Source of the DNA: Deltaproteobacteria bacterium
GTDB lineage: Bacteria > Desulfobacterota > Desulfuromonadia > Geobacterales > Pseudopelobacteraceae
Direction of reading: 5' to 3'
Assembly: GCA_030654645.1 (NCBI GenBank)
Contig: JAURXC010000378.1
Location: forward strand, 1 to 30,318
DNA length: 30,318 nucleotides
Under the pieces are notes generated by a model, which worked only from the letters and a program-made list of their open reading frames with translations, made no database searches and was not told the DNA's origin. This document shows, in pieces, positions 15,095-30,318 of this stretch. Position 1 is the stretch's first letter, and every line of letters begins with the position of its first letter. Made by a program: the position numbers and the translations under genes.

Positions 15095-16003
15095 CTACCA
15101 CCAGCGCCAGAGCGCCAGGATCAGTACGATCAGAAAGACGTTCACCAGGTTCATGTAGGCCATGAAGAAGAATACCCGCTCGTGGAGCGGCGACGGGCGT
15201 TTGACCCCGCTTACCAGATGTCCCACCACCGGCAGCTTTTCCAGCAGTTCGGCGCCGTGGGGCGCCTGGGACAGCACCTGGCTCAGGTCGCACCCGGCCT
15301 GGTGCCTGCCCATGTGATTGCCCTGCTTCCATAAGCGGCTCTGTCCGGCATCGTAGATCGTTCCACGGTAGGCGAACAGGGCCGGCCGCCCCTCCTTGCC
15401 GTCGCAAAGGCCAAGTTCTTCGATGCTCATCTCCCCGCCGAGGACCGGTTGCGCCTCTCCGCTACTCTTCCTCCTCAATCGCGGTCCGATCACGGTAACC
15501 ACGAAGGCGGCCGAGGTGACCATCACCAGGTAGAGGGAAATTTTCACCAGCAGCAGGATGCCGAAGCGGGACTGCAACAGCAGTTCGGGAGAGTCGATCC
15601 GAAAACGGGTCAGGATGACGCCGGTGATGCCCATTACCACCATGGAGGCGATGCCGACCCGCATTTCTCCGCGCGGCAGCCCGCTGGATGCATAGGCCGG
15701 CTTGAGCACCAGGTGGACGTAGAGAATGGTGCCGAACCAGAGGAAGGCGGTGATCATGTGCAGGTAGCCGACGGCAAAGCGGAATGCCTTGGCGGTTGCC
15801 GACAGGGGCGGCTTGGGTGTGGTTTTTGTGAGAGTGTCGCCAAACTCACGGCCGGCTTTGGTGAGTTCGCCTCCGCCGGCAGGATCAACATGGCAGGCGG
15901 CGCAGTCGCGGCCGGTTTGGTTGGCATATTCCTCGGTGGCAACTGCCGTCAGCGGACAGGCCAGCGTCAGGATCAATACAAGCTGGATCAGTAGTCTGTT
16001 CAT
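15095..16003 (-). CDS. Membrane protein fusing a periplasmic monoheme c motif, a CopD-like TM region and a cytochrome b5-like domain
   Basis: Signal peptide, CAACH, 4 TM segments, then EELGLCDGKEGRPALFAYRGTIYD..HMGRHQAG.DL...APHG, and a terminal TM segment. Confidence 0.8.
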   Translation of the reverse strand: MNRLLIQLVLILTLACPLTAVATEEYANQTGRDCAACHVDPAGGGELTKAGREFGDTLTKTTPKPPLSATAKAFRFAVGYLHMITAFLWFGTILYVHLVLKPAYASSGLPRGEMRVGIASMVVMGITGVILTRFRIDSPELLLQSRFGILLLVKISLYLVMVTSAAFVVTVIGPRLRRKSSGEAQPVLGGEMSIEELGLCDGKEGRPALFAYRGTIYDAGQSRLWKQGNHMGRHQAGCDLSQVLSQAPHGAELLEKLPVVGHLVSGVKRPSPLHERVFFFMAYMNLVNVFLIVLILALWRWW

Positions 16004-19550: not shown

Positions 19551-19712
19551 ACGCACCAAATGTAGGCGCTTCTAGGCGACGACGCAACGAACGCGATGAA
19601 ATTCAAATACTTAAGAAGATTTGTGACCACACCAATCTGGTGAATGATATTATCGTTTAACTGCCTGATTTTACGTTGCGTCGTCGCTTGGATGCGCCTA
19701 CTTTTGGTGCGT
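19551..19712. repeat. 39-bp imperfect inverted repeat pair (19551-19589 and 19674-19712) around an 84-bp spacer
   Basis: 35/39 identity between the left arm and the reverse complement of the right arm. Confidence 0.9.
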
Positions 19713-21331: not shown

Positions 21332-22030
21332 CTACTCGGCGTCCGTTACCTTGCCATCCACAAGCACCACCTTTACATCCCGGTACACCAGCACGGTCTT
21401 GCTTCCGAGCAGGATCTCCTTTTCCGGGGCTCCAAAAATGGCGACGACTTCATCCAGCGTCTGCCCGAGCCGGATGGTCCGGGTCGCTCTGCCATCGGGG
21501 GCGCGCCGCGCCTCTTCCTCTGTCCTGAACCAATGGGCGATATCGTTGATAACCTGCCTGGAACTGACCCCGGCCAGCCCACCGTCATACCGGAAGCGGG
21601 TGGTCGCCTGCAGTGGTGTCGGTCCTCTGGTGCCGCTGCCGGTCACGACAACGGTCTTGACGGTGAAGAGGTTCAGTTCCACGTAGTCATCTCCGCTCGA
21701 TATGCCGTACAGATAGAGCTGGTCGCCCACCTTCAGAGAGCCGTCCAGGTTGCCCCCCAGCGGCAGCCCGCTCCCCCCGCTTGCGGTTATCCGGCCGCCG
21801 GCGATGACATTCGGCTTGAACAGTGCCGAGGGCTTGTGTTTCCTGAGACCTTCCTCCTGTACGATCAACACGGAGCCGATCGCCTTGAAATCGCCGAAAA
21901 AGCCGGGAACCGTGTAGCGGTAGCGGGCTTCGAGTGCCGACTTGATCTCGTCCCTGGTAACGGCGAATGAGTTCACTGACGGGAGGAGAAGCAGCAGACT
22001 CAGGAATGCAAGAGAGTAACGGCAACGCAT
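21332..22030 (-). CDS. Secreted hypothetical protein with C-terminal SmpA/OmlA(BamE)-like motif
   Basis: Signal peptide ending SFA; C-terminal IRLGQTLDEVVAIFGAPEKE...YRDVKVVLVDGKV. Confidence 0.75.
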   Translation of the reverse strand: MRCRYSLAFLSLLLLLPSVNSFAVTRDEIKSALEARYRYTVPGFFGDFKAIGSVLIVQEEGLRKHKPSALFKPNVIAGGRITASGGSGLPLGGNLDGSLKVGDQLYLYGISSGDDYVELNLFTVKTVVVTGSGTRGPTPLQATTRFRYDGGLAGVSSRQVINDIAHWFRTEEEARRAPDGRATRTIRLGQTLDEVVAIFGAPEKEILLGSKTVLVYRDVKVVLVDGKVTDAE

Positions 22031-24382: not shown

Positions 24383-25672
24383 TCACTGCTGCCACTGCTG
24401 CAGGGTGGTGCGAATAATTTCGAAATAGCCCGGCTCCCGCACGACCTCCTGATATCCCGGAACGGCTCCCACCCACTTGCCCAGCCGGACGTTGCGTTCC
24501 CGGGTGAGATAAAGGGTGGGCAATCCCATCAGGGCCGGTCCGTCCATGCCGGCAGTGGTCACGCCAATCTGCCCCACCAGTCCGTGGCGGCATCGCAACT
24601 CTTCAAACAGATGCAGTTGAGCCCGGCGCATGTCCGGCCCCTGGAAGAGCGGCTCTTTCCAGCAGAGGGCCAGGTTGACTGAGCCTGGCAGCACAAGCTC
24701 TGCGGGAACAGCATCGCCGAAAAAGATGGGTATGAGCCTGGCATTCACAACCAGTTCGGAAAGCTGACGCAGCTCATCGAAACAGGTATTGCGCCGGGCA
24801 TCGTGGTCACCCGTTCGAACCCAAAGCAGTACCTTCTGTTCCGGTCTCCCTCCCACCTTGCCATCGATCCATGATCGTAAGGAAGCCGCTGGCGATTCGT
24901 CTCCCAGGAAGGCGGAACGCAGGGTGTGCTGTGCTCCTGGCGCATCGGCGCGAAAAGCCGCGGCGATGATATGGGTCAGATGCTTGGGACTCGCCGGACG
25001 GGACCGATAGGGGCGCAGAGATCCTTCCAACCCGGCAGAGCAAAGAAAGCTTCTGGCCGGCACTTCCTGGGCAGCGCCGGGCCTGATCTGGATGGAAAGG
25101 CCGGCAAACAGTGCCGCAGCAGTCAGGTACCAGCCTTCGCCAAACGAAAAACCGGGATCAGCATGGAACGTGTAGGCGCGGTTTCGCTCCAGGACTATTT
25201 TCCGGGCGGCGATTGCGGCATCCTCAGCCCTGCGGGCAATCTCTTTCGCTCTGGCTGTATCAAGGAGCCGGGCAAAACCTGCGGCCGCCAATGCCGCCTC
25301 TTCGGCAGTGCATACGATCTCCTCGACACGATGCCAGCCGTCTTCGCAATCTTCCAGCGTGGGTGCCCGCTGGGAACCGCGCGAGAGCTGCCCGGCGCCA
25401 TAGCGCGCATCCTCGGCCCGGGCCCCTGAAGCCTGAACCAGCAACCACTGGAGCAACGGCTCCTCTCGACTTCCCACCCCGTTGTCCAGCGCCTTGGTGG
25501 CCACCTGAACAACCTGCTCCAGCCGGGAGCGATACTCATCGCGCACGCCGGGCAGATGCAGCGTTCCCTGCAGTGCGGTGGCCTCAGCCAGAAGAGAGCC
25601 GGCCCATTGGGTGAGCTCCCCGCTATCATTTTCGTTATGGAACAGCATTGTCACAGCATCTTCTTCGACCAT
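24383..25672 (-). CDS. Hypothetical protein: helical N-half and Rossmann-like C-half
   Basis: Long ORF with coding-like composition. Start uncertain (25753, 25672 or 25648). Confidence 0.75.
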   Translation of the reverse strand: MVEEDAVTMLFHNENDSGELTQWAGSLLAEATALQGTLHLPGVRDEYRSRLEQVVQVATKALDNGVGSREEPLLQWLLVQASGARAEDARYGAGQLSRGSQRAPTLEDCEDGWHRVEEIVCTAEEAALAAAGFARLLDTARAKEIARRAEDAAIAARKIVLERNRAYTFHADPGFSFGEGWYLTAAALFAGLSIQIRPGAAQEVPARSFLCSAGLEGSLRPYRSRPASPKHLTHIIAAAFRADAPGAQHTLRSAFLGDESPAASLRSWIDGKVGGRPEQKVLLWVRTGDHDARRNTCFDELRQLSELVVNARLIPIFFGDAVPAELVLPGSVNLALCWKEPLFQGPDMRRAQLHLFEELRCRHGLVGQIGVTTAGMDGPALMGLPTLYLTRERNVRLGKWVGAVPGYQEVVREPGYFEIIRTTLQQWQQ

Positions 25673-25730
25673 GTTTTCGGCGCGAGCGGCCCGTCTATTA
25701 TCATCTCCACCAGACACTTGGCTACATCCT

Positions 25731-25890
25731 TCATAATTCAGCCAGTTCAGCAATAGTCAGATCGGACAGCGAGATCACGGCGGTTTCCCTCTGCGGCGGG
25801 GACTGCATCGGTTCAGGAACAGCCGCTGCTGCAGCGCTTCGTCATAAAATGAAATGGTCTTTTCCAGCAGAGCTGCAAGTTCTGTCAACA
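25731..25890 (-). pseudogene. Duplicated 3' end of the wHTH gene plus a 15-codon stub of its partner gene
   Basis: Translates LTELAALLEKTISFYDEALQQRLFLNRCSPRRRGKPP*, then an overlapping GTG ORF MISLSDLTIAELAEL*. Confidence 0.8.
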
Positions 25891-27222: not shown

Positions 27223-27305
27223 GGAAATCATCCTTTGCAACTTCTATGGGGAATTCGAAAAAGAAGGGCGTGTGCGGATTGACAAAATAGCGGTTCTCTT
27301 CCGTG

Positions 27306-27433
27306 CGGACAGCGAGATCACAGCGGCTTGCCTCGACGACGGGGGCGGCGCCGGTTCAGCAGCAGCCGCTGCTGCAGCTCTTCGTCATAAAACGAGAGCG
27401 TCTTCTCCAGCAGAGCTGCAAGTTCTGTCAACA
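27306..27433. repeat. 128-bp direct repeat (other copy 25763-25890), 110/128 identical
   Basis: Ungapped base-by-base comparison. Confidence 0.93.
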
Positions 27434-27647
27434 GAGGGTAGCGCGGGTTGAAGGTGTACAGACGGGTGCGTCCCGCCAGTCGGCTCGCCAGGACGCCGCC
27501 CGCTTCCAGTTTGTCCAGCTGCTTCTGGATCGGCGCCAGCGAACTGTTGTAGAAGGTGGCAATCTCACGCGCATACCCCTCTCCTCTGGCATTCAGGAAG
27601 GTAAGGACCCGCTCGCAGTTGATGGAACCGACAAGTGCTTCGATCAT
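27318..27647 (-). CDS. Winged helix-turn-helix DNA-binding protein (probable orphan antitoxin/regulator)
   Basis: EGYAREIATFYNSSLAPIQKQLDKLEAGGVLASRLAGRTRLYTFNPRYP; basic tail RRRPRRRGKPL. Confidence 0.8.
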   Translation of the reverse strand: MIEALVGSINCERVLTFLNARGEGYAREIATFYNSSLAPIQKQLDKLEAGGVLASRLAGRTRLYTFNPRYPLLTELAALLEKTLSFYDEELQQRLLLNRRRPRRRGKPL

Positions 27648-27672
27648 GATTTTGATCCGCAATACTTTATTG

Positions 27673-27700
27673 TAGGTCACATGACCTATATTATAAGTCA
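27673..27700. promoter_or_regulatory. Overlapping palindromes over a TATAAT box upstream of the wHTH gene
   Basis: TAGGTCA-ca-TGACCTA (27673-88) and TGACCTATATTATAAGTCA (27682-700); minus-strand TATAAT at 27690-95. Confidence 0.55.
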
Positions 27701-27881
27701 GTATATCAGTGAGTAGCGGTTGTCAAGGAGAGAGTGGGCTGACTTATGATAACCGCCATTCTTTGCGATGTTCGGAACGTCTGGGTGGGCGTTGCTTGCT
27801 ATGTTGCTAATTGTGGCAATAGAAAAATAACAAGCAACGTTACGCCTTCCTACGCGATATCAGTCGCTTATATGGTGTAAA

Positions 27882-28172
27882 TCAACCAACAAACAACGTC
27901 CCGTTTTCGTAGTAAAGATTATAGAATTGCGTCAGGTATTCTTTGCCATCGGCGGCAGTATGTGCATATTTTGCACGAACTGAATCTTCCTCCAGTTCCC
28001 CCTCTTTGAATACATTGCGCAGATGCTTGGTGATTACTGAACGCTCCCTGCCGAACAGTTCCGCCATCTGATCCTGGGTCAGCCAGACGGTTTCATGGTC
28101 AAGGCGAACTTCAAGGGTAGCCGCCCCATCAGAACTTTGATAAATGATTATTGCGTTATCTGTTGTGGTCAT
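27882..28172 (-). pseudogene. Truncated RhuM-family protein (N-terminal about 86 aa only)
   Basis: IIIYQ..DG...EV....ETVWLTQDQMAELF...VITKHLRNVF..GEL aligns with the intact RhuM at 28953-29975; homology stops after FYNL. Confidence 0.85.
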
Positions 28173-28410
28173 GCGTGTACCTCTTGGAATCCGGCCATGC
28201 TGCTGGTTTGGCCAATGTGGATGATCCGCCGCCAGTAGAGGTTGAAGAGTTAGTTCAGCTCCACCAGATAAATGTTTTCAGGCTTCATAATTCATTCTTC
28301 ATAATTGCATTCTTGTGCGGAGCCTTGCGTTTGGTGGCGTTGCTCCCCATCGCGCCGGGGGCGCGGTTGAGGGAGGCGAAGTGCTTTATGTAATTTGTGA
28401 AATTGATCAT
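28170..28410 (-). pseudogene. Degenerate 5' relic of a putative HNH restriction-endonuclease gene
   Basis: MINFTNYIKHFASLNRAPGA...TKRKAPHK, then after a frame break LVELN*LFNLYWRRIIHIGQTSS. Family assignment is from recall of APHKP-type N-termini and is unverified. Confidence 0.5.
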
Positions 28411-28420
28411 TGATTCTTCC
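28301..28420. repeat. 120-bp direct repeat (other copy 30199-30318, reaching the window end), 105/120 identical
   Basis: Ungapped base-by-base comparison. Confidence 0.93.
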
Positions 28421-28529
28421 AACTGGCTTTCAATATCAGGGCAGTTTCAACTTGGCATCTTGGAAGCCAGGCCCGATCCCAGGCCCTGCCCCAAATGTCC
28501 AGAAGTCAATCATGACCCCGCAGGTTTCC

Positions 28530-28844
28530 CTATGCCGCCTTCAGCATCTGCACCTTCTCCAAAACTTTTTGATAACGCCGCTCTGCATGCCACAGATCAA
28601 ACGCATTCTGGGCGTTCAGCCAGAACGCCGAAGAATTGCCGAACAGTCGCGAAAGACGCAACGCCATGACCGGGCTGACGGCACGACGGCATTGCAGCAG
28701 TTCGTTGGCCGTCTGCCGCGACACCCCCAGCGCCGCAGCCAGTGACGTAACAGTAAGACCGTAGTCCGGCATGAAATCCTCGCGCAACATCTCCCCCGGA
28801 TGGGTAGGGGAAACGGTTCTTTTATCGCTGTTTGATATACTCAT
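28530..28844 (-). CDS. higA: HigA family antitoxin
   Basis: PTHPGEMLREDFM, LAAALGVSRQTANELL, MALRLSRLFGNSSAFWLNAQ. Confidence 0.93.
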   Translation of the reverse strand: MSISNSDKRTVSPTHPGEMLREDFMPDYGLTVTSLAAALGVSRQTANELLQCRRAVSPVMALRLSRLFGNSSAFWLNAQNAFDLWHAERRYQKVLEKVQMLKAA

Positions 28845-28856
28845 CTTGTCACCTTG

Positions 28857-28946
28857 TTAATGATAGTCGGTTATCTCCACGTCATAGGCATCGCCGTCTG
28901 CAAAAACAAAACAGATACGCCATTGGTCGTTGATCGAGATCGAGTG
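28857..28946 (-). pseudogene. higB: 3' remnant of higB toxin
   Basis: HSISINDQWRICFVFADGDAYDVEITDYH*, the HigB C-terminal signature, lies immediately upstream of higA with no start codon. Confidence 0.88.
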
Positions 28947-28952
28947 CGCTGG

Positions 28953-29975
28953 TCATGGTTTCTTTTGCTCCAACAATCGTTTCTCCAGCTCTTCCAGAGC
29001 TTGCAGATCCTCTTTATCAGCGGCCAAGGCTTCTTCGGTTTTGCGCTTTTGGTCAAATTTTTCATACCGCTGTTCGGCGATTTCCTTGACCACCTCGGCC
29101 TTTACTTTTCCGGCATGGGTCAAGATCTCATGCTCATTGAACGACAGAAAGGCGTCGAGTTTTTCCGACCACTGTTCCATGGTGACGGTCTTGCGTTGTC
29201 GGGCCTGCCGTTCAGCATAATCCAGATACATGGTGACAATCTCGTTAAGGTCTTTAATCTCATCGGCCTGCAGATAGTTCTTGGCAGTGGCCACATCCGG
29301 CTTGCGGACAATGGAACCCTGCCAAGAGGTCAGCCCCATGTTGGGTAGCTCCGTATTACTGCGCGATTCGATCAATTCTGCGGCGGTCTTGCCGCTAATG
29401 GCCCAGAGCATTTTGTTCTGGACCTTCTTGAAAAACAACTGGGCCAGCTCGGAGCTTTTGTCATAATCGATGGCGGTGGTATAGATATCGCGGATTTTCT
29501 GGTAAAAACGCTTTTCTGATGCCCGGATATCCCGGATGCGGGCCAACCACTCGTCAAAATAGTCCCAGGTATCGGCTTTTTTCAGCCGTTCATCATCCAT
29601 GGCAAAGCCTTTGATGATGTATTCTTTCAAGATGCTGGTAGCCCAGATGCGAAACTGGGTGGCACGCTTGGAGTTGACCCGATAGCCTACGGCGATGATG
29701 GCGTCGAGATTGTAATACTTGACCGTCCTGGTCTGCGTTTTACCCGGTATCGCACCGTGGACCGTGGTATGTTCCAAAATGGAACTTACCACATGCTCAT
29801 CCAGCTCAGCGCTGTCAAAAATATTTTTCAGGTGTTTGGTGATTGCCGGGCGTTGCACACCAAAAAGTTCAGCCATTTTCTCCTGGGTCAGCCAGATGGT
29901 TTCATTCTGCAAGACGGTGTCAACTTTAATGTCACCGTCGGGAGTGGTGTAGAGGATGATTTGGGATTCGGTCAT
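28953..29975 (-). CDS. RhuM family (virulence RhuM-like) protein
   Basis: YNLDAIIAVGYRVNSKRATQFRIWAT..LKEYIIKGFAMDDERLK, RIRDIRASEKRFYQKIRDIY, AKNYL motifs. Confidence 0.92.
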   Translation of the reverse strand: MTESQIILYTTPDGDIKVDTVLQNETIWLTQEKMAELFGVQRPAITKHLKNIFDSAELDEHVVSSILEHTTVHGAIPGKTQTRTVKYYNLDAIIAVGYRVNSKRATQFRIWATSILKEYIIKGFAMDDERLKKADTWDYFDEWLARIRDIRASEKRFYQKIRDIYTTAIDYDKSSELAQLFFKKVQNKMLWAISGKTAAELIESRSNTELPNMGLTSWQGSIVRKPDVATAKNYLQADEIKDLNEIVTMYLDYAERQARQRKTVTMEQWSEKLDAFLSFNEHEILTHAGKVKAEVVKEIAEQRYEKFDQKRKTEEALAADKEDLQALEELEKRLLEQKKP

Positions 29976-29991
29976 GCTGCACATCCTTTGA

Positions 29992-30090
29992 TTAGAATGG
30001 GTCGGTCGAGATCAGACCAGCCACGGCGGCCCGCTCCAGTTCCAATTCCTTCTGCACGGAGCTTATGAAGATTCGCTTTTTTGTGTTCAT
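29992..30090 (-). pseudogene. 32-codon 5' stub of a DUF4062-domain gene
   Basis: MNTKKRIFISSVQKELELERAAV matches the xIFISSxxxELxxER start typical of DUF4062; stops at TAA 29992-94. Confidence 0.65.
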
Positions 30091-30198
30091 GCGGACTACC
30101 TCTGACCCTGCCCCCTACAGCACTTGGACAAAGGCAATTGTAAATTCAGTGAGTTATAGAGCGTTAGTCGGCAAATCAACAACGTCCCGCTGCCCCCT

Positions 30199-30308
30199 AT
30201 AATTGCATTCTTGTGCGGAGCCTTGCGTTTGATGTCCTCTGTTCAGGTCGCGCCGGGAGCGCGGTTAAGGGAGGCGAAGTGTTTGATGTAAATTGTGAAA
30301 TTGATCAT
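30199..30308 (-). pseudogene. Second 5' relic of the putative HNH endonuclease gene
   Basis: MINFTIYIKHFASLNRAPGAT*TEDIKRKAPHK with an in-frame TGA; diverges from copy 1 shortly after APHK. Confidence 0.55.
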
Positions 30309-30318
30309 TGATTCTTCC

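Follow-up and report, generated by a model that had tools for sequence, protein, structure and literature searches.

Intact and broken defence and toxin-antitoxin genes joined at dispersed repeats at a contig end of a Pseudopelobacteraceae genome

We analyzed an array of intact and broken defence and toxin-antitoxin genes at the end of contig JAURXC010000378.1 (here C382; assembly GCA_030654645.1) of a Deltaproteobacteria bacterium of the Pseudopelobacteraceae. The window, i.e. the whole stretch of DNA under study, is this entire contig of 30,318 nt, which belongs to a 2.73-Mb metagenome-assembled genome (MAG; G000) of 411 contigs and 66% completeness. The pieces of the array span positions 27249-30318 and are all located on the minus strand, as had been listed in a first-pass annotation made from the sequence alone and as we found by listing the open reading frames (ORFs), reading the sequence directly, and searching with profiles. 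The co-orientation is real, and the adjacent core genes down to position 21332 lie on the same strand. Comparison with relatives, among them the MAGs G015 and G016, which are 94-98% identical to G000 in shared blocks, yielded an intact relative gene for every fragment. The pattern noted earlier, i.e. that toxins and nucleases are broken and DNA-binding genes are intact, is present in the higB and HNH fragments on the one side and in higA and a winged helix-turn-helix (wHTH) gene on the other.

Gene pieces of the array and their intact counterparts

The outermost piece is a 5' fragment of an HNH endonuclease gene (fragment A, 30318-30199, minus strand), which runs off the contig end. Its ATG is located at 30308, a change of TGG to TGA creates an in-frame nonsense codon, and the gene breaks after 'KAPHK' into a truncated copy of a dispersed repeat, E3, which is described below. 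The contig end thus falls inside a 120-nt repeat, as 30199-30318 is 88% identical to 28301-28420, and a search of the MAG contigs for a continuation of the array past 30318 found none. The second copy is part of HNH relic B (28422-28193, minus strand), in which codons 1-36 are followed by a 44-nt filler consisting of one half of E3 (28306-28263), in place of codons 37-61, and by codons ~62-87. In relatives, the intact HNH genes encode 325-348 aa. Fragments A and B and their copies in G015 and G016 have one derived breakpoint (…KAPHK/NAIM…) and the same E3 filler; A and B are therefore copies of one older relic. Judged from this comparison, the relic is old and has been copied, and is not a product of repeated local truncation. 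The same relic, with a slightly shifted left breakpoint, also lies upstream of a RhuM gene in G034, a member of another family of the order. Related junctions of an HNH fragment with E3, at differing HNH breakpoints, were found at two further loci (L077 and L079) upstream of the gene of a conserved 456-aa protein. A pair of conserved 77-nt segments, considered as a tRNA, was rejected; it matched neither a tRNA nor Rfam and proved to be the 5' part of the HNH gene.

Fragment A is followed by a repeat, R (30197-29992, minus strand), composed of a 5' end similar to the dispersed repeat E2 (GGGGGCAGCGGGACGTTGTTGATTTG...), a leader resembling a promoter region, and codons 1-32 of a DUF4062-HATPase_c_4 gene, closed by a stop codon. 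This DUF4062 start covers 30090-29992 on the minus strand (PF13271, E 2.9e-4), and full proteins of 522-554 aa are encoded in G217, G083, G172, and G025. Next to it lies an intact RhuM gene (29984-28953, minus strand; 343 aa; PF13310, E 6e-110; PADLOC PDC-S05, E 2e-140). R (in this unit 30197-29995), the DUF4062 start, and RhuM together are 89.6% identical over 1195 nt to a unit in G217 (contig C19) and 92.9% identical over 1254 nt to one in G083 (contig C56). Both genomes belong to other genera, and both units keep the same "STDPF-stop" end. This conservation of 90-93% between genera indicates that the stub arrived pre-joined to RhuM. The proposal of the first-pass annotation that genes had been repeatedly captured and truncated at this site is hence not supported, since the HNH fragments copy one relic and the DUF4062 stub was imported with RhuM.

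Across its copies, R consists of the promoter-like leader and the first 10-66 DUF4062 codons, and its 3' ends vary (codons ~10, 20, 32, 33, and 66). It precedes four types of genes in G217, G083, and G172, namely the DUF4062 body, RhuM, a YhcG/DUF1016 nuclease, and a gene of 160 aa, and the arrays of R-DUF4062, R-RhuM, R-YhcG, and R-160aa are co-oriented. The order in G217 is R-DUF4062(full)-R-RhuM, and recombination between two such copies of R would leave the R-RhuM arrangement of the window. The 5' end of RhuM is 99% identical in G006, where it stands in a different context, and the hydrolase region is ~82% identical in the same comparison; the RhuM 3' end, the same as in the window, abuts an R repeat in G083. 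The 'ATGACCA' 3' of RhuM might be a remnant of the HNH start.

In frame behind the TGA of RhuM follow the last 31 codons and the stop codon of higB (28952-28857, minus strand; positions 64-91 of PF05015). This remnant comprises HigB codons ~65-95 only and matches exactly the C-terminus of the intact HigB of G016 (contig C56), where a higB-higA pair that is 98% identical lies directly behind an intact HNH gene. Intact pairs are also present in G018 and G015. According to the comparison with three intact relatives, the homology of the tail begins near 28947, within a few bases. The antitoxin gene higA is intact (28844-28530, minus strand; 104 aa; TIGR02607, E 5.8e-30), and no intact HigB is encoded directly upstream of it, so that the locus is a remnant and not a working pair. 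A single read-through event at the RhuM stop codon (28953-28955) would add 31 HigB residues to RhuM, which is probably meaningless. In G015 (contig C55; L016, ~15100-15300; L062, 1501-1588), the intact higBA pair is followed by an apparent 3' fragment of a tRNA (…GGTTCGAATCCCTACCTCTCCGCCA), with a full tRNA-Ser(CGA) ~2.4 kb beyond it; the higBA pair of G015 may lie in a tRNA-linked island.

The next piece beyond relic B (28172-27882, minus strand; 96 aa; PADLOC PDC-S23), which ends at E2, had been described as a RhuM start. It does have a RhuM-type N-terminus, but the gene combines RhuM-N with Fic/Doc, as is evident from the intact version of 354 aa in G016 (contig C15; PF13310 and PF02661). 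The intact wHTH gene with its promoter is located at 27735-27318 (coding 27680-27318, minus strand; 120 aa; PDC-M05A-like). The promoter region (27690-27735) carries TTGACA…TATAAT and a perfect 14-nt palindrome, AGGTCATGTGACCT, which is a putative operator. Of the adjoining partner gene, only a stub remains (27321-27249, minus strand) that consists of the first 5 codons, a 193-nt deletion, and ~20 codons, its 3' half being gone. The partner is intact in G003 and G037, where it comprises 181 aa with a weak match to DUF2204 nucleotidyltransferases, and lacks its catalytic region in G026 through an in-frame deletion. We checked the recovered genome for an intact HNH gene, HigB, Doc, and wHTH partner elsewhere and found none. 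As far as visible, both higA and the wHTH gene hence stand alone as orphans.

Dispersed repeats and deletions at the junctions

Apart from three plain deletions, most junctions of the array sit on small dispersed repeat families, which we termed E1, E2/R, and E3. The earlier observation that the pieces abut at short shared motifs is thus true; the motifs are, however, parts of dispersed families and not private junction signals.

E1 (27842-27787, minus strand) is a palindromic repeat of ~60 nt with the consensus GGGGGACGCTGCTTGTTATTTTTCTATTG...CAAGCAGCGTCCCCC; its copy in G016 is flanked by cmoB and fxsA. Directly upstream in the window is the left half of E2 (27908-27849, minus strand), which resembles a miniature inverted-repeat transposable element (MITE) with a full length of ~115 nt and the terminal inverted repeats CGGGACGTTGTTTGYTGGTT. 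Copies of E2 occur in G015, G016, G010, G009, and G043 as well as on contig C286 of the window's own genome, and full inverted pairs were found at two loci (L064 and L055). R itself starts with a diverged, E2-like stretch (30197-30146). E1 and E2 were jointly matched in 17 of the 58 genomes of the genus, with at most 12 matches per genome, mostly to E1. At L057 (G009, contig C70) and L196 (G083, contig C56), we observed tandem G-rich decamers (GGGGCTTAAC…, GAGAGGCGGGGTCA…) directly 5' of several E2/R copies, which resemble arrays of protein-binding sites.

E3 is a palindrome of heptamers with the sequence (T/G)(T/G)ATGAA. A 22-nt probe (AATTATGAAGGATGAATTATGA, allowing up to 2 mismatches) detected it in 62 of 239 genomes of the order, with up to 32 sites per genome, while the reversed probe, used as a control, gave 0. 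Halves of E3 make up the filler of relic B, the sequence at which fragment A is truncated, and the segment 25740-25725 upstream of the gene for the 456-aa protein. At L156 (G037, contig C33, 160-560), inverted E3 arms flank a small gene on the opposite strand, which by eye is of the four-helix-bundle '23S rRNA intervening sequence' type; if this identity holds, a small mobile unit may terminate in E3.

All three families are multicopy, palindromic or with terminal inverted repeats, and located at unrelated loci, and are thus dispersed repeats similar to MITEs and repetitive extragenic palindromes; their mobility is putative. Geobacter genomes contain many multicopy families of palindromic and tandem hepta- or octanucleotide repeats, often as inverted pairs, between and inside genes (PMC2700814, PMC2996986), and some of these families have insertion sequences at a set distance (Aklujkar et al. 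2009, 2010; PMC2700814, PMC2996986). E1-E3 are similar to these Geobacteraceae multicopy sequences in their palindromic or heptamer make-up, although no match to a named family was found in the supplementary text of PMC2700814. They differ in that they mark junctions of rearranged DNA in a defence island, a location that is absent from those accounts. A repeat flanking an IS1111-type element in the window (19551-19712) was inspected by eye as a possible relative of E1-E3 and rejected, as it shows no resemblance.

At three junctions, DNA was simply deleted, with 0-2 nt of microhomology. First, the tail of a second wHTH gene (25890-25763) is joined to the stop codon of a hydrolase gene at a TG microhomology, where G015 has an intact gene. 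Second, the 193-nt deletion of the partner stub has 0-1 nt of microhomology. Third, 219 nt are missing from within the RhuM-Doc fragment when it is compared with G015, whose own copy is cut at E2. The first-pass annotation had suggested mapping the breakpoints against intact homologs and had named microhomology deletions as an outcome speaking against a gene-shuffling locus; for these three junctions, this is what was found. The wHTH gene itself is ~95% identical to that of G015 in its promoter and first 82 codons compared to ~79% in its tail, which indicates a recombinant between paralogues. The orphan wHTH tail at 25.8 kb corresponds to the G015-type tail.

Turnover of the locus and alternative readings

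The order of the blocks was compared between G000, G015, and G016, all of which are MAGs. The window contains …E2-E1-wHTH-stub-fxsA-hydrolase-wHTH'-456aa-cmoA-cmoB, G015 contains HNH'-RhuMDoc'-E2-fxsA-hydrolase-wHTH-456aa-cmoA-cmoB, and G016 contains HNH'-RhuMDoc-higB'-456aa-cmoA-cmoB-E1-fxsA-hydrolase, where primes mark fragments. Each genome thus holds the same blocks in one orientation, in another order and another state. The locus is not identical across relatives, which agrees with the variable hotspot that had been suspected. A duplication followed by deletion, or an excision and re-insertion via direct repeats, would give such a permutation. Alternatively, the contig might be a chimera in which strain variants were merged at repeats and false junctions arose. 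Such an artefact would fit the different block orders, the end of the contig in a repeat, and the nature of all three genomes as MAGs, but junctions recur independently, namely HNH'(B)-RhuMDoc'-E2 in G015, R-DUF4062'-RhuM in G217 and G083, and HNH' with E3 in G016 and G034. In addition, neither the hydrolase/wHTH-tail nor the partner-stub junction has a shared k-mer by which an assembler could be misled. We therefore regard an artefact as improbable.

Another possibility is a degenerate chromosomal integron array, the integrase and attI site of which would lie past the contig end. Like sedentary chromosomal integron arrays, the locus consists of small, co-oriented, mostly single-gene units that are rich in toxin-antitoxin and defence functions and that vary in content and order between close relatives. 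True integron integrases (IntI) with attC arrays are present in the same order (G034, 341 and 338 bits), and a fragment of IntI was found at a contig end in G003 of the same genus. However, no IntI exceeded the cut-off of 265 bits (TIGR02249) in G000, G015, and G016, where G000 is 66% complete and its contig ends at 30318. The best match in G000 (contig C334, 130 + 87 bits) is devoid of the IntI-specific insert and adjoins an IS91-type transposase. Moreover, no compact attC-like hairpins were detected between 27.2 and 30.3 kb in a heuristic scan that recovered the true attCs beside IntI in G034, used as positive control, at ~-0.6 kcal/mol per nt; its two matches are long, diffuse, and located inside coding sequence. 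The earlier statement that canonical attC sites are missing thus stands. The spacers are E1-E3 and R, none with an attC fold, the genes have their own promoters or promoter-like leaders, core genes are interleaved, and there is no attI. A degenerate integron is hence already largely refuted, and we consider it very improbable. A covariance model for attC, built from six G034 sites, had only 3 base pairs and was dropped as unusable in favour of the heuristic scan. On contig C334 (3650-5531), the IS91-family transposase gene is preceded by a gene for a 251-aa tyrosine recombinase.

The annotation had also stated that no integrase is in view, which is true but trivial, as the window is a whole contig ending at 30318; no integrase was among the window ORFs scanned with Pfam. 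Neither a tRNA nor a match to Rfam was found in the window or in related arrays. Thus, the border does not show the combination of a tRNA or tmRNA (transfer-messenger RNA) with a tyrosine integrase that characterizes tRNA-targeting integrative islands.

Taken together, the locus is probably not an integron but the margin of a chromosomal defence and toxin-antitoxin island that has a high turnover, is in decay, and is cut off by the assembly at a repeat. It contains clustered candidate anti-phage genes that are variable between close relatives: HNH, PDC-S05 (RhuM), PDC-S23 (RhuM-Doc), and PDC-M05A (wHTH), with PDC-M21A/B at the same place in G015. RhuM and Doc are known to associate with restriction-modification loci and islands (PMC3710099), and orphan antitoxins, which are common, are mostly interpreted as leftovers of degraded pairs and are possibly kept as anti-addiction genes (PMC7354431). 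The locus resembles other defence islands with decaying toxin-antitoxin modules in its clustered RhuM, Fic/Doc, HNH, HigBA, AbiE-like, and DUF4062 genes (PMC3710099, PMC7354431), in the high turnover between close relatives, and in the loss of toxins and retention of antitoxins. It differs from them in the gene-start fragments of HNH and DUF4062 that precede unrelated genes and in the permutation of core-like blocks without inversion.

In the order of events that we infer, the units would have been acquired ready-made, i.e. a type-IV-like HNH nuclease, higBA, RhuM, RhuM-Doc, the wHTH gene with its nucleotidyltransferase-like partner, and the DUF4062 protein. Homologous recombination, presumably of the RecA type, and segmental duplication between diverged module copies (78-90% identical) would then rearrange them, keeping the orientation and allowing whole blocks to move. 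The small palindromic repeats E1, E2/R, and E3 might insert and subsequently serve as recombination sites, and simple deletions with little or no microhomology would add further breakpoints. Selection might tolerate or even favour a broken toxin or nuclease. An antitoxin or repressor, by contrast, could not be lost while its toxin works and would therefore outlive it as an orphan. On this argument, toxins are expected to decay earlier than their antitoxins, and no special mechanism is needed. The locus would thus represent a clear natural case of such decay, in which toxins and nucleases go before the antitoxins and regulators, which are retained, and in which dispersed small repeats and diverged gene copies supply the breakpoints. 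It also calls for caution, because arrays of "fragments" may be inherited as ready modules and not be made locally.

Several points weigh against decay of an island as the full account. The core-like blocks fxsA-hydrolase and 456aa-cmoA-cmoB are permuted at constant orientation between MAGs that are 94-98% identical there, and such permutation is left unexplained. The same applies to the sharp 5' boundary of R/E2 before different defence genes in several genera: the 5' end of R (GGGG..GGGACGTTGTTGATTTG) abuts unrelated DNA in at least 8 copies, which looks more like the end of an element than a random product of recombination, and gene-start fragments recur before different cargo in several genera. 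Furthermore, the absence of a recombinase or of cognate toxins may reflect the incompleteness of the genome, and some junctions could be assembly errors, given that all three compared genomes are MAGs.

The boundary of R would be accounted for by a repeat-bounded exchange of cassettes, in which E2/R, and perhaps the HNH start with E3, is the 5' boundary of single-gene defence cassettes that are moved or captured in a single orientation in trans. The description of the array as cassette-like was accurate insofar as, in arrays of other genera (G083, G217, and G172), a repeat with a DUF4062 start is followed by different defence genes in a common orientation, even though no attC is involved. A sharp, conserved 5' end combined with variable 3' ends would be a signature of one-ended mobilisation, and the 115-nt E2 has terminal inverted repeats. 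The high identity of R with RhuM between genera and of the RhuM 5' end in G006, compared to the hydrolase region, also fits such an exchange. Candidate enzymes would be a one-ended or rolling-circle transposase, a Y1 (IS200/RAYT-like) transposase, or an IS110/IS1111-type recombinase. G000 encodes two Y1_Tnp ORFs, the IS91-type transposase with the tyrosine recombinase, and an IS1111-type element, the last of which lies in this window; these are candidates only. Yet no transposase or recombinase is located in or beside any of the arrays examined, R holds DUF4062 coding sequence, which is unexpected for a MITE, and it has no conserved hairpin or other conserved secondary structure and no covariation. 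Neither a target-site duplication nor a conserved target was seen, and several junctions are simple deletions. Overall, we consider cassette exchange at this locus unlikely, though possible. Slightly more doubtful still is the general form of the proposal, according to which single defence genes of Desulfuromonadales (RhuM, YhcG/DUF1016 nuclease, DUF4062-HATPase_c_4, and others) are cassettes with a promoter-bearing E2/R 5' boundary that are captured, duplicated, and exchanged in a single orientation in trans without attC and IntI. If true, this would be an undescribed, integron-like cassette mechanism for the exchange of anti-phage genes.

Two known systems share features with the R arrays. 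Downstream of the polymorphic toxin genes of Rhs and contact-dependent inhibition (CDI) loci, orphan modules form co-oriented arrays, and each module retains a small conserved stretch of the main gene that allows homologous recombination and leaves displaced fragments. In R, by contrast, the conserved piece is a promoter with the first codons instead of a core-to-tip junction, and the genes that follow are complete, unrelated, and unfused. One-ended capture by ISEcp1, ISCR, and IS91-type elements yields a constant element end, variable distal ends, and an oriented mobilisation of adjacent DNA. Here, no transposase is attached to R/E2, no target duplications were seen, and nothing connects the repeats with the IS91-type gene on contig C334.

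The conserved 456-aa gene and its upstream region

Outside the array proper, a second wHTH tail, a partner head, and an E3 half lie at 25725-25890 on the minus strand, where 38 wHTH codons, the first 15 partner codons, and the E3 half run directly into the leader of the 456-aa gene. The tail is an 86% repeat of 27306-27433. The ORF called for the 456-aa protein at 24383-25753 is overlong: its first 27 codons are junction debris made up of the partner head, the E3 half, and the leader, and the true start is an ATG near 25672 (MVEED…). Although it has no match in Pfam or PADLOC, the protein is conserved across a range from the Desulfuromonadales to the Myxococcota. It was considered as the wHTH partner and rejected, as the real partner is the 181-aa nucleotidyltransferase-like gene and the 456-aa gene has other neighbours elsewhere.

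The sequence CTGGTGGAG upstream of the 456-aa gene was likewise rejected as an HNH relic. It merely resembles HNH codons 62-64 and is a native leader that is also present where there is no HNH fragment; the repeat-derived part near it is AATTATGAAG only. Across relatives, the upstream neighbours of the 456-aa gene vary and comprise HNH, wHTH-partner, an epimerase, or a wHTH-type promoter directly, which marks the site as a hotspot. In Trichlorobacter thiogenes and a Geobacter MAG (L084 and L111), the wHTH promoter with AGGTCATGTGACCT directly precedes the 456-aa gene, indicating that the same promoter/operator module drives different genes in different genomes.

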